From an uncultured Gammaproteobacteria bacterium (GTDB taxonomy: Bacteria > Patescibacteriota > Patescibacteriia > UBA1558 > S5-K13), in NCBI GenBank assembly GCA_964634645.1, contig CAZWKI010000002.1, positions 266 through 47,986 on the forward strand: DNA of 47,721 nt, written 5' to 3'. Of the stretch, positions 23 through 13,794 are shown in pieces. Under the pieces are notes generated by a model. The model was not told the DNA's origin and did not search any database. It saw only the letters and a list, made by a program, of their open reading frames with translations. A program made the position numbers and the translations under genes. Each line of letters begins with the position of its first letter. Position 1 is the first letter of the stretch.

Positions 23-226
23 TAAGGAGTAAAAAATTGATTCTCACGAATCAATTCATCGATCATCTGATTACATATCGGGTGAAGTTTCTACCACTAT
101 CTAGTTGTTAAACAAAAACAGTCTTTGTGACTCCATTGATTTTACAATAATTATGATGTATTATATTTATTGTTTAATGGGGTCGTTTTTTTTAAATATT
201 AGTTTCTAAATTTGTCTTTCAAAATT

Positions 227-247
227 ACCTGCTTGCCGGTAGGCAGG
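227..247. repeat. 21-nt GC-rich palindromic mini-element ACCTGCTTGCCGGTAGGCAGG flanked by AAAATT/AAAATT
   Basis: Palindrome with identical 6-nt flanks at 221-226 and 248-253. Similar copies lie at 12882-12898 and 37138-37158. Confidence 0.7.
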
Positions 248-286
248 AAAATTGAAAATTGAAAATAATAAATAGAAAATAGCTTA

Positions 287-541
287 GGGCGTGTAGCTCA
301 GTTGGTTAGAGCGCAACACTGACCCGCCTCCCGAAGTACAAACACAAATCAATTAAATTGAAAACTTTATTATCTATTGTTGGAGGGCGCATAGCTCAGT
401 TGGTTAGAGCGCAACACTGATAATGTTGAGGTCCCAAGTTCAACTCTTGGTGCGCCCACCAACAGTTGATAATACTGTTGTCCTTCGTACGGAGGGCAGG
501 TAATGTTGAGGTCCCAAGTTCGATCCTTGGCACGCCCACCA
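287..541 (+). tRNA. tRNA-Ile(GAU) interrupted between anticodon positions 35/36 by a 178-nt insert (323-500)
   Basis: Halves 287-322 and 501-541 join into a perfect 77-nt cloverleaf with encoded CCA. The ends of the insert are complementary to each other. Confidence 0.6.
385..461 (+). tRNA. tRNA-Ile(GAU), complete, lying inside the insert of the outer tRNA-Ile
   Basis: Hand-folded cloverleaf: GGGCGCA/TGCGCCC acceptor, anticodon loop CTGATAA, TTCAACT T-loop, CCA end. Confidence 0.9.
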
Positions 542-648
542 ATAGACACTTTAGAATAATGAATTTATAATGATGAATAAATTCAAGAATTTATTAATTA
601 ACTAATTTATTCAAAATTCAACATTAATAATTCAAAATTAAACTTCCG

Positions 649-723
649 CCGAAGTAGCTCAGCGGTAGAGCGAAGGACTGAAAATCCTTGCGTCGGCAGT
701 TCGACTCTGCCCTTCGGCACCAA
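649..723 (+). tRNA. tRNA-Phe(GAA)
   Basis: Cloverleaf: GCCGAAG/CTTCGGC acceptor, loop CTGAAAA, TTCGACT T-loop, CCA. Confidence 0.9.
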
Positions 724-826
724 AAACAATAATGAATTTTGAATTATGAATAATGAATTAAATTTTTAAATTCGATAATTAAATAATTTATTCAAAATTC
801 TAAATTTATAATTCAAAATTAGACTT

Positions 827-903
827 CGGGGTGTGGCGCAGTTGGCTAGCGCGCGTGCTTTGGGAGCATGAGGCCGTGGGTTCGAGTCCCACCACCCCGA
901 CCA
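827..903 (+). tRNA. tRNA-Pro(UGG)
   Basis: Cloverleaf with C1:G72, loop TTTGGGA, TTCGAGT T-loop, CCA. Confidence 0.9.
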
Positions 904-967
904 GTATAAACAGATAAGCTCTGTTTTTTATTTTTATATAATTTATATAATTAAGCTTACTTTAAAT

Positions 968-1032
968 GGTGGGACGATAAGTTTATCCCGCCGAAGCTTT
1001 AGTGAAGGCGGGAAGTCCCACCACCCCGACCA
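968..1032 (+). pseudogene. tRNA-Pro 3' fragment (T-arm, acceptor 3' strand and CCA) with a 28-nt GC hairpin (986-1013) inserted in the T-loop
   Basis: 1014-1032 AGTCCCACCACCCCGACCA is identical to the 3' end of tRNA-Pro(UGG). GGTGGGA at 968-974 pairs with TCCCACC. Confidence 0.7.
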
Positions 1033-1087
1033 TTCGACTCATCCCACTTTGTAGGATTCGCTCATGGTCTTCGACCAAAATTGAAAT

Positions 1088-1135
1088 ACAGATTAAATCT
1101 GTTTTTTTATTTACCAAAAAATTATAAAGTGATAA
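1088..1135 (+). repeat. 48-nt direct repeat (left copy) bracketing the TPR insert
   Basis: 44/48 identical to 3397-3444. Contains a weak ACAGA..TCTGT hairpin followed by a T-run. Confidence 0.8.
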
Positions 1136-1156
1136 TATTATATTAATTATATTAAT

Positions 1157-3109
1157 ATGAATAAAATGCGCCTAAATAATAATGAGTTTCATTTTGGAGA
1201 TCAACACAAATTTGAAATTCAATCGACCATAAATCAAAAACCCTTTGAAGATCCAGTCGTGAGATCTTTCTTTACTAGGTGGTGCGAAATTAACGACTCT
1301 ATTGATCCACAAGTTGTAACTAGAAAAGAATTTAACAATCGGGGGATGCAAGGAATTTTGGAAAAAAAACCAGGCGGCAAGCAAACATTGTTTATCCCAG
1401 AGGACCTACAACTTTGGGAAATGATTGGTGTCATGGAGATTATTGATAAAGACACTTTTGCCGCAAAACAGGAAAGAACGACTGAAATAAAAGAAAAAGT
1501 GCTTGCACTTGGGAAAATTTTTGAAAATGCCGGAGTATATATTGCCGAACGACTTGATGGAATTGAGGATGGCAAAGAAATAGCCGAAGCGTTAGCATTA
1601 GAATTTTACCAGTATGGACAATCTATTACTCACGGTAAAGCCCAAAAAACACCACAAATTGATAAAATCTCTTCAAAAAGTCTCACGCCTCAAGAGACCG
1701 AAGCGATAGATCAATTTTTGGCCGGAGACAATTTGTATAAATCTCGAAAGCAAAGAATTAAAAAATTAACTACCGAAGATATAGCTCAATTTTTTGGCGG
1801 AGACAATTTATATAGATCACAAAAACAAAGAAATGAAAAATTAAACTCTGAAGATCAAGTAAAAAATGATGAGTTGTATGAAAAAGAACGTCAAAAAACC
1901 CTAGTCCAATTTTTCGCGGTAGCCGAAAAAGCATTTGCGATTGAAAGTAAAAATCTTGATGGAGCACTAAGAGAAAGTCCCACGAAACTAAAACCTTGGC
2001 AAAGTGACACCCCTATTCACAGCGCTTTTTTGAAAAGAATTAATAGGGCACTGACAAAACAAATTGAAACTCCAAAACGAGAATTTCAGACCTCTATATT
2101 TAGGCGTGGCATGGAACTGCTACAGCGCAATATGCCTTTTGACAAACTCCCTAATTGGGTTAAATATAGTTATCTTCACTGGCGGAATGGTGAAACCACA
2201 CTCAGAGAGGCTCTTAAGATTGACGAAATGGCAGCAGAGTTAGATCAAATACGTAAAACGGGAAATACTACACAAATAGCAAAAAAAGAACAAAAAATTG
2301 CCGACAAAATTCAAGAAGCCGTTTCAAATTTTTCTTATCAAAATCAATCAAATAATCCGTCAGAGATGGTTGCCAGCCAATGTATCAACTGTGTTGGCGC
2401 TTCAATGCTTGGAGGTGCACTAATGAAAGAAGCCGGTCTGAACTATTTAGTTGGACAAATACCTGGTCACTCTATACTTTTACTTGTGATGAGTGATGAG
2501 CGGGTTGAGTGGCGCGATATGCTCCATACTTCATTCAATGAACACATAACTGATGAAATGATAAGTGGTCAAAGAAAAGATGGCAAGCCATTGACCGTCA
2601 ATGATATTGTCGAATTTAGTCAGAAGCCGGGCTCTGAATCGCTAATATTTGATAATAACCCAAAAAAGTTGCGCTATCAATTATATTGTTTTAATAAGGG
2701 GCACCAACGTATAAATATCTTTGAACCGGAATACGGACAACAAATTCAGGTATTGAATAATACAGGCTACACCCTTAATTCGCTCGGCCGCTATGAAGAA
2801 GCAATTGAAGCGTACCGACAAGCAATTGAAATTGATCCAAAATATGCAGATCCCTACTTTAATTTAGGTATCAATCTTCATCATCTCTATCGCTATGAAG
2901 AAGCAATTGAAGCGTACCGACAAGCAATTGAAATTGATCCAAAGTTTGCTTATGCCTACTTTAATTTAGGTATCGTTCTTAATTATTCGCTCGGCCGCCG
3001 TGAAGAAGCAATTGAAGCGTACCAAAAATTTATTGAATTAGCAGATAATAAAAACGACTATCCTTTAATAGTCAAAGCCAAACAGATGATTGCGGATTTA
3101 AAAAAATAA
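1157..3109 (+). CDS. TPR-repeat protein with a possible transglutaminase-like Cys/His/Asp core
   Basis: Three C-terminal 34-aa TPR units (EEAIEAYRQAIEIDPK). Candidate catalytic motif QCINCVGASML...GHSILL...WRD. Internal repeat GDNLY(K/R)S(R/Q)KQR appears twice. Confidence 0.75.
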   Translation: MNKMRLNNNEFHFGDQHKFEIQSTINQKPFEDPVVRSFFTRWCEINDSIDPQVVTRKEFNNRGMQGILEKKPGGKQTLFIPEDLQLWEMIGVMEIIDKDTFAAKQERTTEIKEKVLALGKIFENAGVYIAERLDGIEDGKEIAEALALEFYQYGQSITHGKAQKTPQIDKISSKSLTPQETEAIDQFLAGDNLYKSRKQRIKKLTTEDIAQFFGGDNLYRSQKQRNEKLNSEDQVKNDELYEKERQKTLVQFFAVAEKAFAIESKNLDGALRESPTKLKPWQSDTPIHSAFLKRINRALTKQIETPKREFQTSIFRRGMELLQRNMPFDKLPNWVKYSYLHWRNGETTLREALKIDEMAAELDQIRKTGNTTQIAKKEQKIADKIQEAVSNFSYQNQSNNPSEMVASQCINCVGASMLGGALMKEAGLNYLVGQIPGHSILLLVMSDERVEWRDMLHTSFNEHITDEMISGQRKDGKPLTVNDIVEFSQKPGSESLIFDNNPKKLRYQLYCFNKGHQRINIFEPEYGQQIQVLNNTGYTLNSLGRYEEAIEAYRQAIEIDPKYADPYFNLGINLHHLYRYEEAIEAYRQAIEIDPKFAYAYFNLGIVLNYSLGRREEAIEAYQKFIELADNKNDYPLIVKAKQMIADLKK

Positions 3110-3396
3110 AACGGCAACCAGTTTTGCTAGCACGTAATTATACGACGACAAAAACGAGAGCAAGACGTAGATTCCTTTTTCCTCCACCCACATCCTTCTC
3201 GTCCCGCTAAGCGGGATCGCCCCGACAATTCTTCGTTCCGTGAAGCGGAACTTCGAATGGCGCGCCACTCCTTTGAAACTTTAAGTGAAAAAGGAAGCTA
3301 TTCGACTTTTCGAAGAAGAAGAAAGAATGGTCCACCGAAGATTTCTTGTTTATCGTAACTTTAGTGGAGATAGAAGCGAAGGTGGACACGCAACAA

Positions 3397-3444
3397 ACAG
3401 ATAAACTCTGTTTTTTTGTTTACCAAAAAATTATAAAATGATAA
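3397..3444 (+). repeat. 48-nt direct repeat (right copy)
   Basis: See 1088-1135. A third partial copy lies at about 910-935. Confidence 0.8.
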
Positions 3445-3467
3445 AATCTATAAATAACATATATAAG

Positions 3468-3545
3468 CAGGGTGTAGCATAGCTGGTCCAGTGCGCAGGG
3501 CTGGGGGTCCTGAGATCGAGAGTTCAAATCTCTCCACCCTGACCA
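3468..3545 (+). tRNA. tRNA-Pro(GGG)
   Basis: CAGGGTG/CACCCTG acceptor (C1:G72), loop CTGGGGG, TTCAAAT T-loop, CCA. Confidence 0.85.
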
Positions 3546-3730
3546 TTTTCAAATAAATCGTTTTTATTGTGTCTAAAATATATAAATATTAATAACATTA
3601 TAAAATATTTTATATAATTAAAGTCCTATTATATGGAAAAAAATATTAATAAAAGCATCCCTCCAAATGATGTGCAAAAAATCGATTATTACACAACAAA
3701 AAAGAAAAAAACATTGATCTTTTTTTAGGT

Positions 3731-3973
3731 ATGTTAATAACAATCACTTGTTATGTTCTTTGGTTTTTTATAATCCCGAAATTTCTACTTTTAGGACCAT
3801 ATATTTTTATTGACTGCATAGCATTATTAATAATATTTTTTTTAAAAAGTAAAAGAGAATATATTAAAAAGGGTGTGATAATATTATTTACCTTAACTGC
3901 GGGGTCGGTTGTTATTTTTATGATAATTATGTTTATTTATATGTTAATAACCAAAACGTCTATTGTTGGCTAA
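3731..3973 (+). CDS. small hydrophobic membrane protein (hypothetical)
   Basis: 80-aa ORF with 2-3 predicted TM stretches. No homology recognised. Confidence 0.4.
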   Translation: MLITITCYVLWFFIIPKFLLLGPYIFIDCIALLIIFFLKSKREYIKKGVIILFTLTAGSVVIFMIIMFIYMLITKTSIVG

Positions 3974-4113
3974 TAAAATCTTGAAATTTCCTAGCAAATT
4001 TAAATAGACAAAAACCCTCATTTCACAAAACCCTCTATTTATCATATAATTTAAAAGTGCTATAATAAAAGTGCCTATAAACAAAGGGCAAACTAATCAT
4101 TAATTAAAATAAA

Positions 4114-4395
4114 ATGGCAAAGATGACAAAATCTCAGCTAATGACAATGTTGGCTGAAAAAACAGGTTTATCTAAAAAAGATGTAGTAAACTTCATGGAT
4201 GTGCTTGTTGACGTAGCATACAAAGAAGTAAAAAATGGTGGCGAATTCGTTTTACCAGGATTTGGTAAAATGGTAAAAGCAAGAAGAAAAGAAAGAATGG
4301 GAGTAAACCCAGCAACAGGAGAAAAAATTAAGATTGCAGCAAAAACTGTTGTAAAATTCAGATTGGCAAAAGCAGCAAAAGAGGCTGTATTATAA
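4114..4395 (+). CDS. hup: HU/IHF-family DNA-binding protein
   Basis: MTKSQL...FGKMVKARRKERMGVNPATGEKIKI beta-arm motif. Terminator follows. Confidence 0.9.
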   Translation: MAKMTKSQLMTMLAEKTGLSKKDVVNFMDVLVDVAYKEVKNGGEFVLPGFGKMVKARRKERMGVNPATGEKIKIAAKTVVKFRLAKAAKEAVL

Positions 4396-4416
4396 ATCAA
4401 AACTCTCGACACAAAA

Positions 4417-4443
4417 ACATCCCGTTTTGCGGGATGTTTTTTT
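4417..4443 (+). terminator. rho-independent terminator after hup
   Basis: ACATCCCG-TTTTG-CGGGATGT followed by a T-run. Confidence 0.8.
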
Positions 4444-4533
4444 ATTGCTAGATAATTGTTGTTCTGCTAAAATTATATAGAAATATAAATTATTGGCATT
4501 TTCTTATACATTGAATACTCTCAAAATCTGCCA

Positions 4534-4562
4534 TTGACACTATATTGATTTGCCCCTATAAT
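4534..4562 (+). promoter_or_regulatory. consensus sigma70-type promoter TTGACA-N17-TATAAT
   Basis: Exact hexamers at 4534-4539 and 4557-4562. Confidence 0.7.
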
Positions 4563-4592
4563 TTCTTTATAAAATTTAAAGAAAATAAGACT

Positions 4593-4955
4593 ATGAATAA
4601 AAAAACACTTAAACAAATTAAAGAAAATTTATTAAAGGAAAAAGAAGATTTAATAAAAGAATTAAATAGTTTCGCAAAAAAGAACACAAATGTTGAGAAT
4701 GAATATGATGCTAAATTTCCAGATTATGGAGATGACGAAGATGACAATGCATCTGAGGTAGCTGATTTTGAAAGCGATCTTTATTTAGAAAAGACTCTTG
4801 AAAAATCTCTTGAAAAGGTTGATGAGGCTCTAAAAATAATTGACAAAGGAACATATGGAAAATGCATTGTATGTGGAAAATCAATTCCAGAAGAAAGACT
4901 AGTAGCATTCCCTACTGCAAACAAATGCATGGACTGCAAAAAGAAAACTTTATAA
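4593..4955 (+). CDS. DksA/TraR-family C4 zinc-finger protein
   Basis: C-terminal CxxC-N17-CxxC (CIVCGKSIPEERLVAFPTANKCMDC). ATG at 4593 was chosen because the tracked TTG at 4545 lies inside the promoter. Confidence 0.8.
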   Translation: MNKKTLKQIKENLLKEKEDLIKELNSFAKKNTNVENEYDAKFPDYGDDEDDNASEVADFESDLYLEKTLEKSLEKVDEALKIIDKGTYGKCIVCGKSIPEERLVAFPTANKCMDCKKKTL

Positions 4956-4959
4956 AAAA

Positions 4960-5436
4960 ATGAAACAAAAAATTATCTCTATATCACTATTTTCTTTTTG
5001 TCTATTTATAATAGATAGAGCATCAAAATATTTAGCTTTAAATAAACTTCCATCTTATGGGGTTTATTTTTTTGAAAAAATAATTTATCTTAAATTAGAA
5101 AAAAACCTCGGCATTGCTTTTGGAATAGCTTTACCAAAAATATTTATAATTACTTTGACAATTATAATAATATTTTTATTGTTTTATTTTTTTATTAAGT
5201 ATTATAAGAAACAAAATAATCTTATTTGTTTATTGATTTTAATAGTTATAATCGGGGCAATAAGCAATCTCTTAGATAGGTTGTTTCATGGATATGTAAT
5301 TGATTTTATAAATATTTCAATTATTCCTGTCTTTAATTTGGCTGATTTTTATATATTTGTTTCTATGGTGATCTATATAATCTTGGAATTTAAACACAAA
5401 AAAACACCCCTCGAAGAATCAAAAGGTGTTTCTTAA
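4960..5436 (+). CDS. lspA: lipoprotein signal peptidase II
   Basis: Four-TM layout with NLGIAFG and NLLDRL...GYVIDFI...FNLAD motifs. Confidence 0.85.
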   Translation: MKQKIISISLFSFCLFIIDRASKYLALNKLPSYGVYFFEKIIYLKLEKNLGIAFGIALPKIFIITLTIIIIFLLFYFFIKYYKKQNNLICLLILIVIIGAISNLLDRLFHGYVIDFINISIIPVFNLADFYIFVSMVIYIILEFKHKKTPLEESKGVS

Positions 5437-5438
5437 AA

Positions 5439-6392
5439 TCATTTCTTCTTTGTAAATAGTAGGCTCAGTATAGAAACGATTACAACAACAGACAACAGGC
5501 CTATTCCTATAATTTTGTTTTTGTTTTTCTTATAAATTTCTTCAAAAATTCCGTTTCTGCTTTGTTTTTCGTTTTGTAAATCTTCTACCGATACTTCTTC
5601 TGTGACTATATTCTCAGCTTCTTTTGTTATTTCGCTATTCTTATTCACTTCTTCGCTTTTGCTTTTATCCACGACAAGCATATTTTCCTCAATTTTATTA
5701 ACACTTACACTAACATCATCTATTCCACTTTCTGAAACAACAACGCTTTTGTCATTGTCTTGCATACTAATTTTAATACCGCTGACTTTCTCTTCTTTTA
5801 TAGAACTTATGTCACTATTTTCTTCCGTTAAATTGCTTTCTGTGCTTGTTGTGGTGGCTTCTTTTTTTGTAGAGATTTCTTGGTTTATAGACTCACTTGA
5901 CCTAATTATGTTTTGCTCTTTTGTTTTTATTATAAATGTATTTTCTACAGAGACAAAGCTTCTTCCCCATTTATTCATGGTCCAAGATATGACAGACCAT
6001 TTATGAGAACCAATTTCAATGTTTTTATTAACTTTAAAATAAAAATTTGCTGTTCCGCTTGCATCTTCATTTACCACTGCTTCCCCCTCATAAACTCCAT
6101 CCACATAAATACTAATTCTAGTTTTATTTGGAGTAAGTCCAGTAAGATAAATATCTTCGCTTGAAAAATATTCATCATTTTCTGGTTTTCTTAGAGTTGG
6201 AATTGTAACCATACAGTGTTTGACGCTACATTCCTTTTTGTACTCTAAATTGTAATCAATTTCCTCCTCTTGTCCATACGCATTATAGGCAGAACAAAAT
6301 AAAAACAAAATCCCCAAAAAAAGCCCGAACAAAATTTTTCTTTGTTTCATAAGCTTTTTTATCCAGCTTAGCTGGATGCATTTAATTTTCAA
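5439..6392 (-). CDS. hypothetical secreted protein with a C-terminal membrane anchor
   Basis: Signal peptide (start may be the internal MKQRKILFG), Ser/Glu-rich linker, C-terminal TM segment. Confidence 0.6.
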   Translation of the reverse strand: MKIKCIQLSWIKKLMKQRKILFGLFLGILFLFCSAYNAYGQEEEIDYNLEYKKECSVKHCMVTIPTLRKPENDEYFSSEDIYLTGLTPNKTRISIYVDGVYEGEAVVNEDASGTANFYFKVNKNIEIGSHKWSVISWTMNKWGRSFVSVENTFIIKTKEQNIIRSSESINQEISTKKEATTTSTESNLTEENSDISSIKEEKVSGIKISMQDNDKSVVVSESGIDDVSVSVNKIEENMLVVDKSKSEEVNKNSEITKEAENIVTEEVSVEDLQNEKQSRNGIFEEIYKKNKNKIIGIGLLSVVVIVSILSLLFTKKK

Positions 6393-6478
6393 ATTACTAT
6401 GTTTTGTAGATATACTTTATTACATTGAAAATAAAAGTCAATATAGCCAAATAGTTATTTTTGTGGCATATAAAAATA

Positions 6479-6832
6479 CTAATATTCTAGTATTTTTATG
6501 CTTGCTTTTTTGCTTTTTAAATCAAGAAACACAAATACAAACAAAAGTTCGAAGTCGTTATCAACATCTCTATCCATTAAGTAATACAAAATTGATTTTT
6601 CAAGACGTTGTAATTTATAATATGAAATTGAGTCTTCCAAATCACCGTATTGAAAATTCGTTCTTGTTTTTACTTCTATAAAATATAATATTTTATCTTT
6701 TTCTGCCAAAACATCTATTTCGCCATAGCGAAAATAAATATTTCTATTCAAAATTTTATAACAGTGCTTTTCTAAATATCTTATAGCAATATCCTCCCCA
6801 AGTTTTCCTGTCTTTTGATTATATTTTTTCAT
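6479..6832 (-). CDS. yraN: YraN-family (UPF0102) endonuclease
   Basis: GKLGEDIAIRYLEK...GEIDVLAEKD..LYFIEVKTR motifs. Confidence 0.85.
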   Translation of the reverse strand: MKKYNQKTGKLGEDIAIRYLEKHCYKILNRNIYFRYGEIDVLAEKDKILYFIEVKTRTNFQYGDLEDSISYYKLQRLEKSILYYLMDRDVDNDFELLFVFVFLDLKSKKASIKILEY

Positions 6833-6876
6833 ATTGCTTATTATAAAATCTTGTTTTTTCTGTCACTCTAAACTTG

Positions 6877-6907
6877 CCTGCCCGCCGAAGCCTTGGCGAA
6901 GGCGGGA
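6877..6907. repeat. GC-rich hairpin element CCTGCCCGCCGAAGCCTTGGCGAAGGCGGGA
   Basis: Member of the recurrent TCCCGCC...GGCGGGA family. Intergenic. Confidence 0.7.
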
Positions 6908-6981
6908 AAATAAAAAGTCGCTCATTGCGACCCTTATCTTAAAACCCTAAAATCTAAAACCTAGACCCTAAACCCTAAACT

Positions 6982-7386
6982 CTAATCTATATATTTCTCA
7001 TACATTTTTCTCTTTGCATCTTCTTGCCTTAACTTTGGAACTTTTACAAGATAGTGCTGAATAGCTGTAATAAGCCAAGATAACATTATTATCCACCACA
7101 AAATAAGTACAAACCTCATCTGGAAATATGGAATTCTTACTTTTCTAAAAAATATCAAAAATAAATTTATTACACCAGTTGTTATAGCAATGTCTGATAT
7201 CTTTATAATAAGAGATTTCTGGTATCTATCAATTTTCTTTCTAAACCAGGATTTTTTTATTAAATACTCTTTTATTATAAGAGAGAAAACTAGTAAAAAA
7301 ATAGAGGTCGAAATAATAACAACAAAAGTGCTATTTTTTAAAATGGGTGGATAAGCGTCAAATAAATATTGAAAATATATGTCCAT
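6982..7386 (-). CDS. hypothetical integral membrane protein
   Basis: 134-aa ORF with several TM segments, abutting the methyltransferase gene. Confidence 0.6.
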   Translation of the reverse strand: MDIYFQYLFDAYPPILKNSTFVVIISTSIFLLVFSLIIKEYLIKKSWFRKKIDRYQKSLIIKISDIAITTGVINLFLIFFRKVRIPYFQMRFVLILWWIIMLSWLITAIQHYLVKVPKLRQEDAKRKMYEKYID

Positions 7387-7947
7387 TTATTTTTTCTTAA
7401 ATATTAATCCAAAATGATATTGACCGGCTTGAAACTCTTTTAAAAGACTTAGATTCAATGCGTCAGAAAGTCCCTTGATATAATTTGGGTCAACACGCTT
7501 GCTCCCTTGTGGTCCAAGTGGTGTTCCAATTCCCATCCAATCAATTATCAAAATTTTTCCTTCTTTTTTTATAAGTCTTGTAGCTTCCTTTAGTATATTT
7601 GGAATATTTGCTGACTGATAAAGCACATTTATAAGCATTACTAAATCAATTGAATTCTCTGGAATTTTTGTTGCTCCATATATCTCTAAATCACTCCAAA
7701 TTGTTTTAACATTATCAAATCCATTTGATTTGGCGTGACTCTCAACAGATGACAAAACTTCTTTTAGGACATCAACAGCATAAACAAGGCCTTTGTCTCC
7801 TACTATTCTTGCAGCCTGAAAAGAAAAATATGCCTTGGGTCCACATCCTAGTCCTGCTACGGTCTGACCATAACTCAATTCGGCAATTTTCTCCAAAATA
7901 TCTTTTGGATTTAATAATTGATTTCCACCCGCTTGTTTATCGTACAT
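7387..7947 (-). CDS. class I SAM-dependent methyltransferase
   Basis: Motif I VAGLGCGPK and a D-V acidic loop. Confidence 0.8.
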   Translation of the reverse strand: MYDKQAGGNQLLNPKDILEKIAELSYGQTVAGLGCGPKAYFSFQAARIVGDKGLVYAVDVLKEVLSSVESHAKSNGFDNVKTIWSDLEIYGATKIPENSIDLVMLINVLYQSANIPNILKEATRLIKKEGKILIIDWMGIGTPLGPQGSKRVDPNYIKGLSDALNLSLLKEFQAGQYHFGLIFKKK

Positions 7948-8123
7948 AAAATTGTATAATTAGATTATTAAAAATTTTATATTATGTCAAGCTAGCTATA
8001 GAGCCACATAGCTACGTAGATCATATATTTTTAATAATGAAAAACCAATACACCAACTTGCTAACTTGCTAATATCATTATATTATTTACTTATAAAAGA
8101 ATCAATCTAATTTATGAATTTTT

Positions 8124-8759
8124 ATGAATTTTAATTTAGGAATTTTGATTATTACAATTGCTTTTTTGGGATATTTTAGCAATTTTTTAAATGGAAAATA
8201 CTTAAATTTTTTTCCAATAAACTTATTGTACTATCTTGGATCTCTTATTCATGAAGGTTCTCATGCAATTGCCTGCATTATAACTAGGGCAAAAATAAAA
8301 AGAATATCAATATTTTCAACTCAACCACAAGTAACACACAATAAATCCAAAATTCCAATCATTGGACAAATGCTAATATCTCTTGCACCAATTGCGGGGG
8401 GTGTAATTTTTCTTTATTTTATAAATCATTTATTATTAAAAGATTATGTTCGTATAGAAAACGTGTCTTCTTTTATTGATGTTATAAAATCTCCTTTTTT
8501 AATTATTTCTCAAATAAATATATTGGAGTGGGAAGGCATAATGCTTATTTTATTGTGTCTCAATATTGGCTCTATGATTGGTCCGTCAATACAAGATTTG
8601 AAAAATATTTGGTTGATATTAATTGTAATGTTTTTTATCAAATGGGCACTCTTAACAAAAATATTCTTAATAATTATAACTCTAATAATAACAAACATAA
8701 TAATTCAACTTACGCTTATTGTTATAAAAAGTATTATGTCTCCAAGAAAAAAATACTAG
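8124..8759 (+). CDS. membrane protein with an HExxH motif (putative zinc metalloprotease)
   Basis: HEGSHAIAC within a polytopic protein. Confidence 0.55.
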   Translation: MNFNLGILIITIAFLGYFSNFLNGKYLNFFPINLLYYLGSLIHEGSHAIACIITRAKIKRISIFSTQPQVTHNKSKIPIIGQMLISLAPIAGGVIFLYFINHLLLKDYVRIENVSSFIDVIKSPFLIISQINILEWEGIMLILLCLNIGSMIGPSIQDLKNIWLILIVMFFIKWALLTKIFLIIITLIITNIIIQLTLIVIKSIMSPRKKY

Positions 8760-9031
8760 TCCAAGTGAATAATTATGGCTCCTTCACCTCCTTCGTTTAT
8801 CTTTGCGTTTGAAAACACGTATCCATTTTTGAGTAAAAAATCCTCAACGTGTTTTTTCAAAATTCCTATTCCATCTTTTGAATGAATTCCTCGCCCAGTA
8901 ATGATTTTTAATTTTTTGTAATTTTTTGATTTAGAATAAGACAAAAAATCTACAATTTCTATTGTGGCTTCTATTTTTGTTTTTCCGTGAAGATCAAGTT
9001 CGTCATCAATTGGTTTCAAGTATTTGTTCAT
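8756..9031 (-). CDS. Smr-domain protein
   Basis: LDLHGKT...ITGRGIHS motifs. Confidence 0.8.
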   Translation of the reverse strand: MNKYLKPIDDELDLHGKTKIEATIEIVDFLSYSKSKNYKKLKIITGRGIHSKDGIGILKKHVEDFLLKNGYVFSNAKINEGGEGAIIIHLD

Positions 9032-9038
9032 AGCAATA

Positions 9039-9067
9039 TTGACAAATATTTTTGAGTGTGCTATACT
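9039..9067 (+). promoter_or_regulatory. sigma70-type promoter TTGACA-N17-TATACT
   Basis: Hexamers at 9039-9044 and 9062-9067. Confidence 0.6.
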
Positions 9068-9073
9068 CCCTAG

Positions 9074-9221
9074 TTAAGTAAAAAACAAGGAAATCTCTAC
9101 ATTTCTGCATCCACGACAAGCATGGGAATTCCTCTTAAGATATTTTCCGGCGATTACCTAGTAATTCGCTTGAAAAGTTCTTAAAGTAATTTTCTTGGAT
9201 GCAGTAATATGGAGATTTTTA
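9074..9221 (+). ncRNA. candidate structured ncRNA: about 130-nt rod-like hairpin, identity unknown
   Basis: 9091-9097 pairs with 9212-9218, and 9105-9113 pairs with 9196-9204 (9 bp perfect). Inner helices lie at 9134-9146/9173-9186 and 9150-9157/9061-9069-type apical stem. Ends in a T-run. Confidence 0.4.
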
Positions 9222-9355
9222 TTGACTTATTATATAATTATGATATTATGTAATTAGGCTAGTATATTGTTATTATACTAGTTTTTTTAAAAATTAATAG
9301 TTATTATTAAATTAATTGGATAGCTAATAAACTAAATAGCTAACCCACTAACAAT

Positions 9356-10594
9356 ATGTTTGGAAACATAGAAGAAATAAAACAAGCAATACAAAATATT
9401 TGTGAAGAAAAAAACATCTCAATAGAATCCGTTATTGAAGGTATTGAAGCTGCTCTTGCGGCTGCTTTTAGAAAAGATTTTGGAGACAAAAATCAAAACT
9501 TAAAGGCAAAATTTAATATCGAAACTGGTGATGTTGAAATATATGACATTAAAACAGTTGTAGAAGATAGGGATGTAGAAAAAGAAAATGAAGAATACAT
9601 GAAAATAAAGGAATCTCTAAAAGAGGGCGAGGAAATGCCAGAAAACATAAAAAGGTTCAATCCAAAAACCGAAATTATGTTAAGCGATGCAAAAGAGCAT
9701 AATAAAAAATTAAAGCTTGGGGATGAATTAATAATAAAATTAGAAATTCCTGATGATTTTGGAAGAGTAGCGGCCCAAACAGCAAAACAAGTTATAATTC
9801 AAAAAATTAGAGAAGCAGAAAGAGAAACAATAATAAGCGAATTTCAAGGAAAAGAAGGCGAGGTTGTAAACACGACTGTTCAACGTAGAGAAGGACCAAA
9901 TATCATAGTTGATCTAAATAGAGCAACCGGCGTACTTCCACAAGAAGAGCAAGTAAGAACAGACAATTATTCAATTGGTTCAAGACTAAAAGTTATAATA
10001 TTAAAGACAGAAGACACTCCAAGAGGGCCAAGAATTGTTGTCTCACGTGCTCACCCTGAAATAATCAATAAAATATTTACAATTGAAGTTCCAGAAATTG
10101 CAAATGGAATTGTTGAAATAAAGGCAATATCAAGAGATCCTGGTTTTAGAACAAAAATTGCAGTATCAAGTAATCAAGAAAACATTGACCCCGTTGGGTC
10201 CTGTGTCGGACAAAAAGGATCAAGGGTTCAAACAATAATTGCTGAGCTTGGTGGAGAAAAAATAGATATAATAGAATGGAATAGTGACCCGCTTACATTC
10301 ATAAAAAATGCTCTTTCTCCTGCAAAAATATTAAACATTGAATTAAATAAAGACGAAAAAACAGCTATTGTAAAAGTAGAAGAAGATCAACTCTCTCTTG
10401 CAATTGGAAAAGAAGGTCAAAATGTAAAGCTTGCGGCTAAACTAACTGGATGGAAAATTGATATAGAGGGTGCTGAAAAATTTATAACACCAAACAAAGA
10501 TGAAAAAAATGAATCAGAAATACAAGTCGATGAAAAAGCCGATGTCGATGAAAAAGCCGAAAAAAAATCAAACAAAAAAAAGAAGAAGGAATAG
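9356..10594 (+). CDS. nusA: transcription termination/antitermination factor NusA
   Basis: N-terminal domain, S1 domain and two KH domains (GSCVGQKGSRVQ, AIGKEGQNVKLA). Confidence 0.9.
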   Translation: MFGNIEEIKQAIQNICEEKNISIESVIEGIEAALAAAFRKDFGDKNQNLKAKFNIETGDVEIYDIKTVVEDRDVEKENEEYMKIKESLKEGEEMPENIKRFNPKTEIMLSDAKEHNKKLKLGDELIIKLEIPDDFGRVAAQTAKQVIIQKIREAERETIISEFQGKEGEVVNTTVQRREGPNIIVDLNRATGVLPQEEQVRTDNYSIGSRLKVIILKTEDTPRGPRIVVSRAHPEIINKIFTIEVPEIANGIVEIKAISRDPGFRTKIAVSSNQENIDPVGSCVGQKGSRVQTIIAELGGEKIDIIEWNSDPLTFIKNALSPAKILNIELNKDEKTAIVKVEEDQLSLAIGKEGQNVKLAAKLTGWKIDIEGAEKFITPNKDEKNESEIQVDEKADVDEKAEKKSNKKKKKE

Positions 10595-10814
10595 TGGCCT
10601 ACATAAAAAATAAACTTTTAAAAAACATGGCATGTTTTATACCCATGTTTTTTGTTTGATTTTTACTATTTAATAACTATTTATTATGACAAATTTGAAA
10701 GCAAGAATCAAGTTGACATGAGCCCTATTAAGCCTTAAAATTATGTTAGTAATTGTCGAGCTTGACTCGACTTAGACACTAAATACTAATAACTAAACAC
10801 TAATAAATAATTCT

Positions 10815-11234
10815 ATGTTTAAAAAAGAAGATATGCATAACGTAAAAAATACCGAAACAATAATCGGCGAATCTGTTGTTGTAGAAGGAGATTTCAATGG
10901 TCACGGAAATGTTGTTATAGATGGCAAATTGATAGGTTCGTTTGTAACTGATGGTCACGTCTTAATAGGGGACAAGGCAGAAATAAATGCAAATATAGTG
11001 GCAAATAGTGCTTTTATTTCTGGTGCTGTAACTGGAAATGTTGATATAAATGAGGCGCTTGATATTGCTAGTAATGCAAAAATAAAGGGGGATATAAAAG
11101 CAAGCTCTATTGCAATTGAGGCCGGATGCGAAATAGATGGTCACGTTAATATCAACAAAAAACACCGCAAAGAAAATCCAAATCAAATTGAAATGGAAAT
11201 AAACACAAAAAACAAAAAAGAAGATTTAAAATAA
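10815..11234 (+). CDS. bactofilin-family polymer-forming protein
   Basis: Repetitive beta-helix pattern (G.V.G. units), typical of the CcmA/DUF583 family. Confidence 0.75.
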   Translation: MFKKEDMHNVKNTETIIGESVVVEGDFNGHGNVVIDGKLIGSFVTDGHVLIGDKAEINANIVANSAFISGAVTGNVDINEALDIASNAKIKGDIKASSIAIEAGCEIDGHVNINKKHRKENPNQIEMEINTKNKKEDLK

Positions 11235-11279
11235 TTTTCTACACCTTATATTTTTCAAAATCCATGACCAATTAAGCTT

Positions 11280-12020
11280 ATGTATTTATATATATATGAT
11301 TCTTGCCTAAAAGATAAAAAATACAAAAAGATTCTTAACAAAATTGAGAATTCAATTATTGATCTTGATATAAAAGGAAAAATATTTCAACTAAATCTTC
11401 TAAAAAATATATCTGAATTTATAAAAGATGAAATGAAGCGGGGCGCACACACCGTAGTAGCCGTTGGTAACGACAAAACATTTAGTCACACCCTAGAAAA
11501 TATTATATCCAAAAATATAGCAATAGGATATATTCCAATTGATTCAAAGAGCAGATTTGCGAATTTTTTTGGGATTCCTTGTGAAGAATTAGCGTGCAAT
11601 GTTGTAAGCGGAAGAATAATAAAACAGATAGACGTGGGTCAAATAAATCAAAAATTTTTTCTACACTCTGTTGTTTTAAACAGCACAAATAACATTGTAA
11701 TAAAAATAGATAAATTTAAAATTAAAGCAGAGTCTGGCGATAAAATTACAATAAAAAATATTGACCTAGAAAACGATGACGAGGTGTGTAAATCGAACCC
11801 AACAGATGAAACTCTTGAAATGCTAATAGAAAAACCCGGCAACATATTTTCAAAAAACTCTACTCACAGTTTGTTCAAAACAAAAAACATATCTATAATA
11901 TCTGAATCAGAATCTATTCCAATGATTTTTGATGAATATCAATCAATAAATACGCCAGTAAAAATTTCTGTTGCAAAGGAGAAGTTAAATATAATAGTTG
12001 GTAGTAATAGAAAATTTTAG
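11280..12020 (+). CDS. diacylglycerol/lipid kinase-like (YegS/BmrU family) protein, divergent
   Basis: VVAVGNDKTF and GYIPIDS resemble the DAGK catalytic-domain motifs. Confidence 0.55.
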   Translation: MYLYIYDSCLKDKKYKKILNKIENSIIDLDIKGKIFQLNLLKNISEFIKDEMKRGAHTVVAVGNDKTFSHTLENIISKNIAIGYIPIDSKSRFANFFGIPCEELACNVVSGRIIKQIDVGQINQKFFLHSVVLNSTNNIVIKIDKFKIKAESGDKITIKNIDLENDDEVCKSNPTDETLEMLIEKPGNIFSKNSTHSLFKTKNISIISESESIPMIFDEYQSINTPVKISVAKEKLNIIVGSNRKF

Positions 12021-12108
12021 TGTTTAGATTTTAAGATTTAGTATTTATTTAAAGAACACCTAAAAAAGGTGCTTTTGTTTTTATGTTTGAAATTCTAAAG
12101 CCTAAACT

Positions 12109-12858
12109 CTACTTCACATCAATTACTTCTGGTGCCTTAGTGTTTTTTTCCATATCTCTATTTACAATATATTGTTCTAATGCACCAAAAAGAGTCATAA
12201 CAAACCAATAAAGAGCGAGTCCGCCTGGAAGAGTTGCGCTAATTACAACTGTTATAATTGGCATTGTATACATCATTTGTTTATTCATTGTTTCCATCAT
12301 TCCTGGTTCTTTTTTCTCTTCATTAACTTTATGAATTTTCTTTTTTGACATCAAAAGTCTTGTTTGCCAAAATTGCGCTATACCAGCTAGAACACCTAAA
12401 AATATCTGTGGTTTTGAAAGATCAAGCCATGACAAACCAAACATTGTAGTATTTATTGTTCCTGGATTTGCAACAAAACTATATAATTCTTGAAAATCAT
12501 TTGTCCTAAGACCGCTTCTAAGAACCTGATATACGGCTATTATAATAGGAAACTGTATCAAAAGGGGAAGACACGATGAAAATGGACTAATTTTTTCTTT
12601 TTTATATAGCGCAAGAGTTTCTTGGGCTAATTTTTCTTTTTGATCTTTGTATTGTTCTTTAATTGCTTCTATTTTTGGCTGTAGTGTTTGAAGTGCTCTT
12701 TGAGATTTTGCTGATTTTCTTGATAGTGGGTGCAAAATAAGTTTTATGATAACTGAAATTATTATTATAGCAATTCCAATATCTGGAATTAAATTATAAA
12801 AAAATATCAATAGATTAAATATTGGTTGATAAAGTAGGTTGTGAAACAAAGTACCCAT
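12109..12858 (-). CDS. yidC: membrane protein insertase YidC
   Basis: Short Gram-positive-type YidC. Conserved rpmH-rnpA-yidD-yidC context. Confidence 0.85.
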   Translation of the reverse strand: MGTLFHNLLYQPIFNLLIFFYNLIPDIGIAIIIISVIIKLILHPLSRKSAKSQRALQTLQPKIEAIKEQYKDQKEKLAQETLALYKKEKISPFSSCLPLLIQFPIIIAVYQVLRSGLRTNDFQELYSFVANPGTINTTMFGLSWLDLSKPQIFLGVLAGIAQFWQTRLLMSKKKIHKVNEEKKEPGMMETMNKQMMYTMPIITVVISATLPGGLALYWFVMTLFGALEQYIVNRDMEKNTKAPEVIDVK

Positions 12859-12881
12859 ATTATTTTATTTATTATTTATCT

Positions 12882-12898
12882 ACCTACCGGTAGGCAGG
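12882..12898. repeat. 17-nt palindromic mini-element ACCTACCGGTAGGCAGG
   Basis: Flanked by TTATCT and TTATTT. Overlaps the yidD stop region. Confidence 0.6.
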
Positions 12899-13165
12899 TT
12901 ATTTTAAAGGATCGTAACCACCACGAGACAATGGATTACATTTGATAATTCTCTTTATTGATAAGTATGAACCTTTGAAAATTCCGTATTTATCAATCGC
13001 ATCATATGAATATTTTGAACAATTTGGATAATATCTACAGCAACCAGCCGGATATTTGTAAGAAAACCATCCGGAATCAGGAGAAAGCGTTTTTTGATAT
13101 AATTTTATTAGGTATAGTGCAAATTTTTTCAACCCGTTAAATATTATTTTTTTATATGGAATCAT
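12899..13165 (-). CDS. yidD: membrane protein insertion efficiency factor YidD
   Basis: CRYYPNCSKYSYDAI motif and gene context. Confidence 0.85.
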   Translation of the reverse strand: MIPYKKIIFNGLKKFALYLIKLYQKTLSPDSGWFSYKYPAGCCRYYPNCSKYSYDAIDKYGIFKGSYLSIKRIIKCNPLSRGGYDPLK

Positions 13166-13209
13166 AAAATCATGTTTTAGTCCGTTAAGTATAAATTATT
13201 TAACGGATT

Positions 13210-13551
13210 TCATTTGAATAATTTTGATCTTTTTATAATAAAAATTAATTCTTCTTGTATTTTTATGTAATCTAATTTCAAGACGCCCGATTTAGCAAAA
13301 AAAATAATGTTATAGCCCGATTTAATATTTGAAATATTTTTTCTTATTATTTCACTCATTCTTCTTTTTATCAAGTTTCTGTCTACCGCTTTCTTTGAAA
13401 CCTTTTTTGATATTACAAAAGCAAATTTACTATTCTCTTCATTGTTTTTAATATAACGCAAAATAAAATTTATGCTATAAAACTTATGTCTTGATTTGAA
13501 TATTGCATCAAAATCCTTCTTGAATCTTAATCTATATTGTTTTGCAAGCAT
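13210..13551 (-). CDS. rnpA: ribonuclease P protein component
   Basis: Basic 113-aa protein lying between rpmH and yidD. Confidence 0.8.
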   Translation of the reverse strand: MLAKQYRLRFKKDFDAIFKSRHKFYSINFILRYIKNNEENSKFAFVISKKVSKKAVDRNLIKRRMSEIIRKNISNIKSGYNIIFFAKSGVLKLDYIKIQEELIFIIKRSKLFK

Positions 13552-13559
13552 AATAAAAA

Positions 13560-13697: not shown

Positions 13698-13794
13698 ATT
13701 ATTTATAAATTATTTACTTATTAATTTTGTATTCTAATTACACTTCAATATAACAATAAAATCTACTTTGGTCAACATATAAACAAACGCGTCG

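Follow-up and report, generated by a model that had tools for sequence, protein, structure and literature searches.

The window examined here is the whole 47,721-nt stretch of DNA. The analysis concerns a family of short GC-rich hairpins in it, one of which, at positions 6877-6907, had been flagged in a first-pass annotation made from the letters alone. The window has a G+C content of about 29%, has the 3' part of a 16S rRNA gene at its start and codes for NusA, YidC, LspA, DksA and type IV pilus proteins; the nearest homologues of its L19 and DksA are found in metagenome-assembled genomes (MAGs) of Patescibacteria. Eleven tRNA genes were identified in it with ARAGORN and Rfam. Related loci (L047, L049, L052, L126, L128 and others) were obtained via homologues of L19 and DksA, and tRNA fragments were located by short-word BLAST of each tRNA against the window and by direct reading. 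Because an independent assembly (Logan, SRR8925802) matched positions 31119-39044 at 100% identity, the hairpin loci are not an assembly artefact. The tRNA-Ala gene is the break point of one Logan contig of the source organism.

Hairpin copies and their structure

All nine sites of the first-pass annotation (986, 3202, 6877, 15138, 29893, 33340, 34680, 40763 and the pair at 34470-34518) are present in the window. Throughout the text, tRNA positions written x/y denote an insert between tRNA nucleotides x and y, and the canonical strand of a hairpin is defined as C(Y)TG-TCCCGCC-GAAG…CGAA-GGCGGGA. The copies and the features directly associated with them are:

968-1032, + strand: T-arm of a pseudo-tRNA-Pro with the hairpin 986-1013, reading GGTGGGAC-GATAAGTTTA-(hairpin)-A-GTCCCACCACCCCGACCA
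3202-3216, + strand: short form TCCCGC-TAA-GCGGGA with CTCG as left context, followed by TCGCCCCGACA; a weak family member
3329-3388, + strand: long hairpin GGTCCACC-GAAG...GCGAA-GGTGGAC with the GAAG/CGAA junction of the family and an expanded loop, not listed previously
6877-6907, + strand: the flagged copy, with the hairpin CCCGCC-GAAGCCTTGGCGAA-GGCGGG at 6881-6906 and CTTGCCTG before it
15138-15163, - strand: looser copy TCCCGCC-GAGCCAAGCTTT-GGTGGGA, with a G.T pair on the - strand only
29893-29910, + strand: short weak copy CTTG-TCCCG...CGGGA
33312-33378, - strand: pseudo-tRNA-Val, in which nucleotides 1-12 of tRNA-Val (GGGTCCTTGGCT) are followed by the hairpin 33340-33366 at 12/13 and a decayed remainder
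33685-33701, - strand: lone second copy of the 17 nt at the 3' end of tRNA-Ala(tgc) (TCCCACCAAGTCCACCA)
34470-34518, - strand: two hairpins directly 3' of tRNA-Ala(tgc), the second being GATGTCC-GCAGCTTTAGCGAA-GGACATC, a family loop on a different stem
34650-34720, - strand: pseudo-tRNA-Ala, GGGCTTGTGGCT-(TCCGCC..GGCGGA-CAGG)-CAGTTGGTTAAAC..., with the hairpin 34684-34708 at 12/13
40750-40809, - strand: pseudo-tRNA-Arg(cct), consisting of the first 19-20 tRNA nt, the hairpin 40763-40790 at 19/20 and then CGAG...

The strict pattern CCCGCC-N8-24-GGCGGG was matched three times in the window (986, 6877 and 40763) and not once in 100 dinucleotide shuffles. The contexts that had been reported as shared were recovered as well, namely TTATCCC to the left of 986 and 15138, CTCGTCCC to the left of 3202 and 40763, the start CCTG(C/T)CCGCC at 6877 and 34680, and the common loop GAAGC-YTTR-GYGAA. 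The consensus consists of C(Y)TG, TCCCGCC, GAA, a covarying helix of 2-3 bp with a small loop, GAA and GGCGGGA.

For the analysis of the structure, 26 hairpins were aligned, taken from the window, from related loci and from other phyla. They share a GC stem of 6-7 bp (7 bp in the alignment), a symmetric GAA/GAA internal loop, an inner helix of 2 bp and a loop of 3-6 nt, and 94% of the alignment cells are paired, the constancy of the outer stem being partly imposed by the pattern with which the copies from other phyla were collected. Double changes at five pairs amounted to 21 cells, compared to 4.9 ± 2.8 in shuffles, and none of 500 shuffles reached this number; the innermost pair alternates between C-G (9), U-A (9), G-C (2), U-G (2) and A-U (1). 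The hairpin structure is supported by this covariation and is under selection. Stem and loop are both kept, as had been proposed, the inner helix with compensatory changes. Predicted fold energies range from -13 to -19 kcal/mol with z-scores of -1.6 to -3.8.

A covariance model was built from the 26 hairpins and run on the window. On the + strand the copies at 986, 40763, 6877 and 34680 scored 33-45 bits (E <=3e-6), and on the - strand 34471-34498, one arm of the pair at 34470-34518, scored 27 bits; these five strong copies are all in the seed of the model and match by construction, and no additional strong copies beyond the seed were found in the window. The sites 3202, 33340, 15138 and 29893 scored weakly (8.7-12.6 bits, E 0.5-6), having a TCCCGC-type stem in common and lacking the family loop. 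The hairpins of the window are heterogeneous, i.e. a tight core family with looser relatives, and no two of them are identical. An Rfam scan of the window and 23 related loci returned no family covering the hairpins. On inspection, kink-turn, hammerhead and bulge-helix-bulge readings of the loop did not fit.

The flagged copy lies between the terminator of the gene 6982-7386 (- strand) and a promoter-like site of the YraN/UPF0102 gene 6479-6832 (- strand). On the - strand the hairpin is followed by CAGG-CAAGTTTAGAGTGAC, with a weak resemblance to a tRNA D-arm (CAGTTGGTTAGAGC), and this CAGG-CAAGTTTAGAG resembles the hairpin-CAGG-CAGTTGGTTAGAG of the pseudo-tRNA-Ala. The copy is tentatively regarded as a possible old pseudo-tRNA remnant. 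The spacer upstream of yraN holds a hairpin in three genomes (window 6825-6990, L128 15316-15640, L126 16288-16480), with differing sequences (TCCCGC/GCGGGA versus TCCTGAA/TTCAGGA), which could be due either to a conserved structure or to repeated insertion; in L128 this spacer reads hairpin-…CAGTTG. Telomere-like units of the CCCTAAA/CCTAAA type (TTTAGGG on the - strand) are located at 6935-6990 of the window, where they overlap the stop region of the gene 6982-7386 (- strand), and L128 has a similar TAGGGTTAGG stretch at the matching place.

Disrupted tRNA gene copies at the hairpins

Most copies cluster at tRNA loci, so that the family is not scattered through the window as had been described. 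Its occurrence inside tRNA fragments had been only glimpsed and goes further than reported: the hairpins are located at fixed positions in disrupted tRNA copies beside the intact isoacceptor gene. The insert sites are loops and arm junctions of the cloverleaf, namely 8/9, 12/13, 17/18 and 19/20 in the D-arm, 35/36 in the anticodon loop, and 56-59 and 65/66 in the T-arm. The hairpin-bearing tRNA copies are disabled and in decay, and each has an intact gene of the same tRNA as its neighbour. Exact tRNA duplicates adjoining the hairpins of the window comprise 19 nt (Pro), 12 nt (Val), 12 nt (Ala) and 20 nt (Arg-cct). Read on the tRNA strand, the hairpins at 34680, 33340 and 40763 are preceded by the first 12, 12 and 19-20 nt of tRNA-Ala(tgc), tRNA-Val and tRNA-Arg(cct), respectively, and the intact gene follows 58-68 nt further downstream; the pseudo-tRNA-Val as a whole lies 39 nt upstream of the intact tRNA-Val gene 33196-33272. 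In the pseudo-tRNA-Ala, which is homologous to pseudo-Ala units of L047, the tRNA sequence is resumed after the insert (…GGCT(hairpin-CAGG)CAGTTGGTTA…) and then decays. The lone duplicate at 33685-33701 is an old tRNA-Ala 3' end, left downstream of the GIY-YIG/orf67 block. The sequence TCGCCCCGACA after the short hairpin at 3202 is possibly a remnant of a tRNA-Pro 3' end.

The hairpin at 986 is inserted at T-loop position 58/59 of the pseudo-tRNA-Pro, the last 19 nt of which are an exact duplicate of the 3' end of tRNA-Pro(tgg) (827-903), 83 nt upstream; the region 968-1032 folds with a z-score of -4.6. It is directly followed by a further feature:

1033-1075, + strand: shortened copy of a structured element, TTCGACTCAT…, which in relatives comes after the CCA end of tRNAs

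This element marks the old resident downstream flank of the pseudo-tRNA-Pro. Downstream of the intact tRNA-Pro(tgg) gene a terminator is present instead of the TTCGACTCAT… element, and the pseudo-tRNA-Pro is therefore the older copy, since its 3' end retains the element.

The structured element itself is about 100-190 nt long, lies directly after tRNA CCA ends and shows long-range pairing of TTCGACTCAT…ATGAGTCGAA. Copies are located in the window at 1033-1075, in L052 at 10632-10800, in L049 at 10828-11070 and 11628-11720, and in L128 at 7587-7690; in L052 and L049 the copy 3' of tRNA-Val precedes a GIY-YIG gene. Its internal hairpins have family-like TGAG…CGAA loops.

At two loci of the window, an intact tRNA gene is nested within the parts of a split one:

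287-322, + strand: 5' half (positions 1-35) of an outer, split tRNA-Ile(GAT), downstream of the 16S 3' end
323-500, + strand: 178-nt insert at anticodon-loop position 35/36, whose ends CCCGCCTCCCGAAGTAC... and ...GTACGGAGGGCAGG pair like a split hairpin
501-541, + strand: 3' half (positions 36-77) of the outer tRNA-Ile
30687-31077, - strand: nested tRNA-Arg(tct), with the following parts in - strand order
31077 to 31043, - strand: 5' part of a pseudo-tRNA-Arg(tct), positions 1-35
31042 to 30895, - strand: 148-nt hairpin-rich insert at 35/36, ending in ...GCGGGA, not listed previously
after the 148-nt insert, - strand: positions 36-41 (TAAGCT) of the pseudo-tRNA-Arg(tct)
30862 to 30788, - strand: intact tRNA-Arg(tct), within a 167-nt cassette starting six nt after the 148-nt insert
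30721 to 30687, - strand: 3' part of the pseudo-tRNA-Arg(tct), positions 41-75

The arms of the split hairpin in the tRNA-Ile insert (323-339 and 487-500) had been missing from the first list. The insert carries an intact tRNA-Ile (385-461), the acceptor stem of which differs from that of the outer gene and is internally compensated. Joined together, the outer halves form a valid tRNA-Ile that is identical at 76 of 77 positions to the unsplit tRNA-Ile in the rRNA spacer of L128. The inner tRNA-Ile matches the L126 gene at 74 of 77 positions, and the latter is preceded by a decayed remnant of the left arm. Taken together, the unsplit gene of L128, the split gene of the window and the remnant in L126 represent a series of empty, filled and decayed states. 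The unit 287-541 is predicted to fold as a nested structure (z-score -5.3). At the second locus, positions 1-35 and 41-75 of the intact tRNA-Arg(tct) recur on either side of it at 100% identity, and the 148-nt insert consists of several TCCCGC-type hairpins without a match in Rfam.

Filled and empty sites were also found by comparison with the relatives. The tRNA-Val site is empty in L052, where a 44-nt spacer separates tRNA-Leu from tRNA-Val. In L049 the L052-type spacer is followed by GGGTCCTT and a 132-nt insert, which starts with the hairpin and contains a new upstream region with the intact tRNA-Val at its end. The ancestral spacer is preserved at 34 of 44 positions next to the pseudo copy, as opposed to an alignment score of -5 for the flank of the intact copy. 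The broken copy keeps the ancestral flank, and the intact tRNA-Val is therefore the newcomer. The tRNA-Ala site of L049 is filled by a 98-nt insert sharing its first 36 nt with the Val insert, and its ancestral flank is ambiguous. At position 19/20 of tRNA-Arg(cct), the window and L052 carry an insert and L049 has the empty site. In these comparisons the broken copy retains the ancestral flank and the intact copy comes with new flanking DNA. The junction where homology is lost is marked by the hairpin; in the nested tRNA-Ile, both junctions are marked in this way.

Moreover, the same insert was found at the same position in different tRNAs. A two-hairpin insert (TCCGCC-NNN-GGCGGA and CCAGCC…GGCTGG) is located at CAGTT/GGYTA (17/18) in pseudo-tRNA-Pro copies (two each in L126 and L128) and in two pseudo-tRNA-Ala copies of L047; by manual count, the inserts of the L126 pseudo-Pro and the L047 pseudo-Ala, both from one metagenome sample, match at 47 of 49 nt. 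Single hairpins at GCT/CAG (12/13) occur in pseudo-Ala (window and L047), pseudo-Phe (L126) and pseudo-Val (window, by direct reading). The hairpins behave like insertions, as is evident from the filled and empty sites in relatives and from this recurrence at one position in different tRNAs. Some pseudo copies carry two inserts (at 12/13 and 17/18 in L047, at 58/59 and 65/66 in L039), which is consistent with accumulation in dead copies.

Outside the relatives, the exact motif TCCCGCCGAA-N6-10-GAAGGCGGGA was found at 44 loci in species-representative genomes and at 71 metagenome loci. After removal of duplicates, the motif lay within 130 nt of an intact tRNA gene at 10 of 40 distinct low-GC loci, which belong to other phyla, and at none of 60 high-GC loci, the chance expectation being about 2% (a rough estimate from tRNA density rather than a computed figure). 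High-GC matches, which are located in coding-like sequence and never near a tRNA, were treated as chance. Viral contigs had no match to the motif, and the matches in collections of plasmids and phages, all of them within coding sequence from GC-rich organisms, were put down to chance. A comparison of the hairpin flanks with tRNAs by 9-mers was uninformative because of its high background (18%).

A duplicated tRNA end beside the hairpin was identified at L045, L039, L075, L082, L077, L116 and L041. In the Bacteroidales loci L045 and L039, tRNA-Gln is followed by GAGAAGTTTA-hairpin-A and a duplicate of the tRNA from position 59 onwards. L082 contains a tRNA-Ser with GGGTTCA(CTTG-hairpin)AATCCCAC…, and in L075 two hairpins and a duplicated 3' end accompany tRNA-Glu. 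L077 and L116 have 5' fragments of 12 and 15 nt, hairpins and then the intact tRNA. Comparison of L041 with L003 revealed an old T-arm with a 30-nt two-hairpin insert at 56/57, joined to the common downstream flank; the intact tRNA-Ala of L041 has a different T-stem, and the comparison shows the fragment to be the old resident tRNA end. A 38-nt module, GAKAAGTTTA plus hairpin at T-loop position 58/59, occurs both in this Patescibacteria window and in Bacteroidales MAGs, a distribution that is hard to explain without horizontal spread.

Readings of the hairpins

On balance, and by a narrow judgement, we regard the hairpins as GC-rich palindromic insertion modules of about 27-50 nt that are specific for tRNA-gene DNA and tied to tRNA-replacement cassettes. 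On this view, small non-coding cassettes would invade a tRNA gene and bring a replacement copy with them; the modules would form the conserved ends of these cassettes, and the bare hairpins would be their miniature derivatives, comparable to miniature inverted-repeat transposable elements (MITEs). A mechanism directed by the structure of folded tRNA DNA could mobilise them in trans, and insertions would persist only where a second copy of the tRNA exists.

The orientation of the inserts is in line with such a mechanism. T-arm inserts are canonical on the tRNA-sense strand and D-arm inserts on the antisense strand; thus the GGCGGGA end usually points towards the closer tRNA terminus and the CYTG end towards the middle of the gene. 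The strands are well distinguished by the covariance model (44.6 versus 14.9 bits at 986). A bias of the replication strand was considered, as the window copies are nearly all canonical on the + strand, and was discarded: the copies in L126 and L128 are on the opposite strand for + strand tRNAs, so that orientation follows the polarity of the tRNA and not the replichore. The polarity argues for a single-strand, polarity-dependent reaction. The symmetry of the orientations about the acceptor-stem dyad would follow if one particular strand of the module were joined into the 3'-half loops of whichever strand of the tRNA gene folds.

Several observations weigh against the insertion-module interpretation. 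The polarity has exceptions (L116 and L025), the target sites have neither a duplication of constant length nor a tetranucleotide in common, and the lack of identical copies in the window gives no sign of recent bursts. No transposase, HUH/RAYT, TnpB or integrase was found among the 20 open reading frames (ORFs) of the window that were scanned with Pfam. No tRNA remnant was detected at 15138, which lies 12 nt upstream of the ATG of the gene 14484-15125 (- strand), or at 29893, and only a weak one at 6877. Stem identity across phyla is partly fixed by the search pattern. Family hairpins located directly 3' of the CCA of tRNA-Ile and tRNA-Ala suggest a role in RNA, and G.T pairs favour the transcribed strand in several copies. 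In L016, a family hairpin (3922-3948) lies in the groES-groEL spacer, anti-canonical on the mRNA strand, which suggests a role within the mRNA like that of repetitive extragenic palindromic (REP) elements. Finally, the pseudo 5' fragments are identical to the intact neighbour even where the genomes differ: the 19-nt fragment of tRNA-Arg(cct) (40750-40809; L052 4990-5045) matches its own adjacent gene, although window and L052 differ at 3 of 19 positions. Such tracking of the neighbouring gene requires gene conversion (concerted evolution) or functional constraint.

The last of these points, the conserved loop GAAGCUUUAGCGAA and the covariation of inner helix and stems also speak for a different origin, in which the hairpins are functional RNA structures of tRNA operon transcripts, e.g. 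leaders or trailers that block exonucleases, guide processing or bind a protein, and which evolve in place while the tRNA loci duplicate and decay around them. This would account for the family-loop hairpins that L126 and L128 have immediately behind the tRNA-Ile CCA, with compensatory GCC/GGC versus GAC/GTC pairs, for the one after tRNA-Ala in the window and in L047, for the G.T pairs on the tRNA-sense strand (986, L049), for the copy between groES and groEL, for pseudo 5' fragments that co-vary with the neighbouring tRNA, and for a hairpin of diverged sequence in the same yraN-upstream spacer of three genomes. It would not predict a near-identical 49-nt insert at one tRNA position in pseudo-Pro and pseudo-Ala, the alternation of filled and empty sites between close relatives, opposite orientations in D-arm and T-arm with the D-arm canonical strand antisense to the tRNA, or a homologous module in Bacteroidales and Patescibacteria. 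An origin as RNA structures evolving in place is therefore judged unlikely, if by no means negligible; an RNA function as such is compatible with mobility, REP elements being both mobile and functional.

A tRNA 3' segment duplicated downstream of an intact tRNA is a classic signature of integration into tRNA genes. The hairpins could in this case be element sequence beside the attachment core, in attL/attR scars of tyrosine-integrase elements that were later almost wholly deleted. Duplicates of this kind at 986, L045, L075 and L082 and the anticodon-loop and T-loop sublocations, which are typical of such integrases, agree with this. We nevertheless consider integrase scars improbable, since no integrase was found among the window ORFs scanned or beside the examples, the inserts are only 60-190 nt long at many independent loci, and 5' fragments starting at +1 are as common as 3' fragments. 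Conservative site-specific recombination would not keep both halves around a complete tRNA, as in the nested Ile and Arg loci, nor does it fit the bare 27-50-nt inserts with tRNA sequence on both sides; in L041 the incoming tRNA differs in both T-stem strands, which places the crossover outside the T-loop. In a separate check of the window for integrase-mediated integration, 3' repeats were found at 986 and 33685, together with 5' repeats, nested genes and the absence of an integrase.

Small hairpin inserts at many non-canonical positions are known from the tRNAs of Thermoproteales (Fujishima et al. 2010, as cited in PMC10714607), and this likeness raises the question of bacterial tRNA introns analogous to the mobile bulge-helix-bulge introns of archaea, after whose removal the outer tRNA-Ile and similar genes would be functional. 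The outer tRNA-Ile is favourable to such introns, its halves being complete, mutually compensatory and 76/77 identical to the intact gene of a relative, and the whole Ile unit being predicted to fold as a nested structure. All other carriers, by contrast, are truncated or decayed, and an intact copy lies next to every carrier; two separate inserts interrupt the outer tRNA-Arg(tct), so that a single removal could not restore it; the junctions show no bulge-helix-bulge geometry, either on inspection or in the predicted fold of the Ile unit; no group I intron or ribozyme was matched in Rfam; and the organism is bacterial (NusA, YidC, LspA). Introns are thus a very improbable explanation. When the archaeal type was considered by itself, only the outer tRNA-Ile proved complete. 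Group I introns, which are about 200 nt long or more, were discarded as no Rfam match was obtained at the gathering threshold or at E <=5, the inserts being 27-178 nt long. As would be expected of ordinary Rho-independent terminators, finally, the hairpins are GC-rich stem-loops in intergenic regions of an AT-rich genome. None of the nine sites is followed by a T-run, however, and none is among the 36 terminator-like sites called in 1-20000 and 27800-47721; the true terminators of the window have other stems, several hairpins are located upstream of genes or inside tRNA-derived sequence, and the loop sequence is conserved. The earlier statement that the hairpins are not generic terminators was therefore borne out, and the terminator explanation is refuted by the missing T-tracts.

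The comparison with REP and MITE-like elements made in the first-pass annotation stands as far as insertion-like behaviour is concerned, as seen in the filled and empty sites; within the window it is not supported in that the copies do not resemble a dispersed, high-copy family of near-identical members and no duplication of constant length was seen. The copies are short imperfect extragenic palindromes as REP elements and REPINs are, but the window contains only five strong model matches in 47.7 kb, all from the seed, none identical and none arranged as inverted doublets. With regard to elements of the IS200/IS605 type, the inserts show hairpins and no duplication, and the nucleotides before the insert vary (CTGA, CTTC, GGCT, AGTT, CGA, TTC). 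The co-occurring HUH/RAYT or TnpB gene that had been suggested as a search target did not turn up among the ORFs scanned, and the analogy to REP/RAYT specifically is not established. A DDE-type MITE was rejected: the arms form inverted repeats, but the direct repeats extend 8, 12, 15 and 19-20 nt from tRNA +1 and the right ends differ. Likewise, a simple 8-bp target-site duplication fits two L049 inserts, while the repeats elsewhere comprise 12-20 nt from +1 with differing right ends of the inserts.

Candidate enzymes, known systems and further observations

Two genes for nucleases of the GIY-YIG type are located among the pseudo-tRNAs for Ala and Val:

33388-33648, - strand: gene for a GIY-YIG nuclease of the UPF0213 type with no domain other than the catalytic one, directly upstream of the pseudo-tRNA-Val
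34110-34367, - strand: second GIY-YIG gene, about 36% identical to the first (tblastn), downstream of tRNA-Ala and the hairpin pair

Both window proteins have 85 aa. The GIY-YIG proteins of these loci have 80-100 aa, are of the UPF0213 type and contain PF01541 only, with no joined DNA-binding domain; the closest solved structures are 1zg2 and 1ywl. In the phylogenomics of the GIY-YIG superfamily, an Slx1 cluster including prokaryotic members was described (PMC1564403), to which we assign the UPF0213 type on our own reading. L126 and L128 have a third paralogue between two pseudo-Pro repeats, an arrangement that is suggestive only. The neighbouring UPF0213/Slx1-like nucleases are weak candidates for the enzyme. 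Their role as a dedicated mobilising enzyme is weakened, since one of the genes keeps its syntenic place between tRNA-Val and tRNA-Ala in L049, L052 and L131, and since no tRNA lies within 2 kb of the UPF0213 homologues from a Clostridium sp. MAG, a Sulfurimonas genome and a Bathyarchaeia MAG, both of which also count against the insertion modules. When the hairpin loci were searched by tblastn for GIY-YIG as a general partner, it was found near the hairpin only in Patescibacteria-like loci. A Seg-like free-standing GIY-YIG homing endonuclease was rejected, as the proteins consist of the catalytic domain only and the copy between Val and Ala is syntenic.

In its widest form the insertion-module interpretation would describe an undescribed class of selfish DNA, ranging from Patescibacteria to Bacteroidota, for which the term 'tRNA-replacement cassettes' might be used. 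Such cassettes would home into loop positions of essential tRNA genes and supply their own functional copy or the missing end, with the hairpin as recognition and joining end, a structure-specific nuclease such as UPF0213 acting on cloverleaf-folded single-stranded DNA, and the bare hairpins as miniatures. This wider proposal is put forward tentatively and is unlikely to hold in full. The cassette would spare its host by bringing a tRNA copy or the missing end and not by splicing.

Features of several known systems are combined here. Like REP/REPIN-RAYT elements and the palindrome-associated transposable elements (PATEs) of IS200/IS605, the hairpins are short, extragenic, GC-rich, non-coding palindromes without target-site duplication, are plausibly mobilised in trans via folded single strands and can act as RNA structures. 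They differ from both in targeting specific positions inside tRNA-gene sequence, in occurring as few diverged copies rather than hundreds of near-identical ones, in lacking a GTAG-type flanking tetranucleotide and inverted doublets, in that no RAYT or TnpA was seen in the window, and in that some members hold a whole tRNA gene between two arms. With the archaeal bulge-helix-bulge introns (Thermoproteales) and split tRNAs (Nanoarchaeum) they share small hairpin inserts at many non-canonical positions of different tRNAs, and the GC-rich complementary sequences flanking the two tRNA-Ile halves resemble the leaders of split tRNAs; unlike those, they are found in a bacterial host, without a bulge-helix-bulge, in pseudogene carriers accompanied by an intact copy, and with an intact tRNA inside the 'intron'.

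Classic landing sites for large integrative elements are provided by tRNA genes. Phages, integrative and conjugative elements and islands that target tRNA genes likewise compensate the disruption with a tRNA sequence borne by the element, leave the old end as a direct repeat and use anticodon-loop and T-loop sites. In contrast, the inserts described here have 30-190 nt and no integrase, replacement of the 5' part is as frequent as that of the 3' part, complete tRNAs are nested in split ones, and a conserved hairpin is located at the junction. SegB of phage T4 (PMC2330249) also combines GIY-YIG genes among tRNA genes with local, non-reciprocal replacement of tRNA regions. The proteins of the window are, however, predicted catalytic domains of 80-100 aa from the UPF0213/Slx1 cluster without a DNA-binding domain (PMC1564403), and one of the genes is syntenically conserved between tRNA-Val and tRNA-Ala in relatives. 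A full-text literature search returned no bacterial account of a tiny non-coding, hairpin-ended insert at fixed cloverleaf positions that is paired with a replacement tRNA.

If correct, the insertion-module interpretation would account for pseudo-tRNA debris and duplicated tRNA ends in the streamlined genomes of Patescibacteria. The split and intron-containing tRNA genes of archaea would have a bacterial counterpart that solves the same problem in another way, and an as yet unknown activity that inserts DNA in a structure-directed manner would be indicated. There would also be consequences for the annotation of tRNAs and for how contigs are assembled and binned around tRNA loci.

Additional repeats and structures were observed in the window and in other contigs. 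A second family of GC-rich palindromes, CCTGCC(N)GGCAGGCAGG, distinct from the TCCCGCC hairpins, is located in the window at 228-248 and 37143-37158, in L049 at 10448-10463 and in L126 at 13894-13913. The segments 1085-1140 and 3395-3445 of the window are near-duplicates (terminator ACAGA..TCTGT-T7 plus TTTACCAAAAAATTATAAARTGATAA), one ahead of a gene for a TPR protein and the other ahead of tRNA-Pro(ggg). On the - strand, an ORF of 42 codons coding for a very basic peptide (MAKRATGIGKRKKSHSHKTKKRLEAKK…) and not listed before was found at 29755-29880; it starts 10 nt after the hairpin at 29893, is without an obvious Shine-Dalgarno sequence and is absent at the matching position in L049 and L052. 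Among the motif loci, L011 and L033 (Omnitrophota) and the metagenome contigs L066, L069, L078, L079, L081, L095 and L110 share a conserved double-hairpin element, TCCCGC…GCGGGA followed by TCCCGCC-GAAGTRATAACGAA-GGCGGGA-AATTCGC, with conserved flanks and away from tRNAs, which may be a separate repeat or RNA family. In L010, L026 and L094 (about 7559-7587), contigs of the Woesebacteria type, the hairpin is located inside a longer perfect hairpin, CCCCCCTCC-GAAG-(hairpin)-CGAA-GGAGGGGGG, forming a rod with periodic GAA/GAA internal loops.

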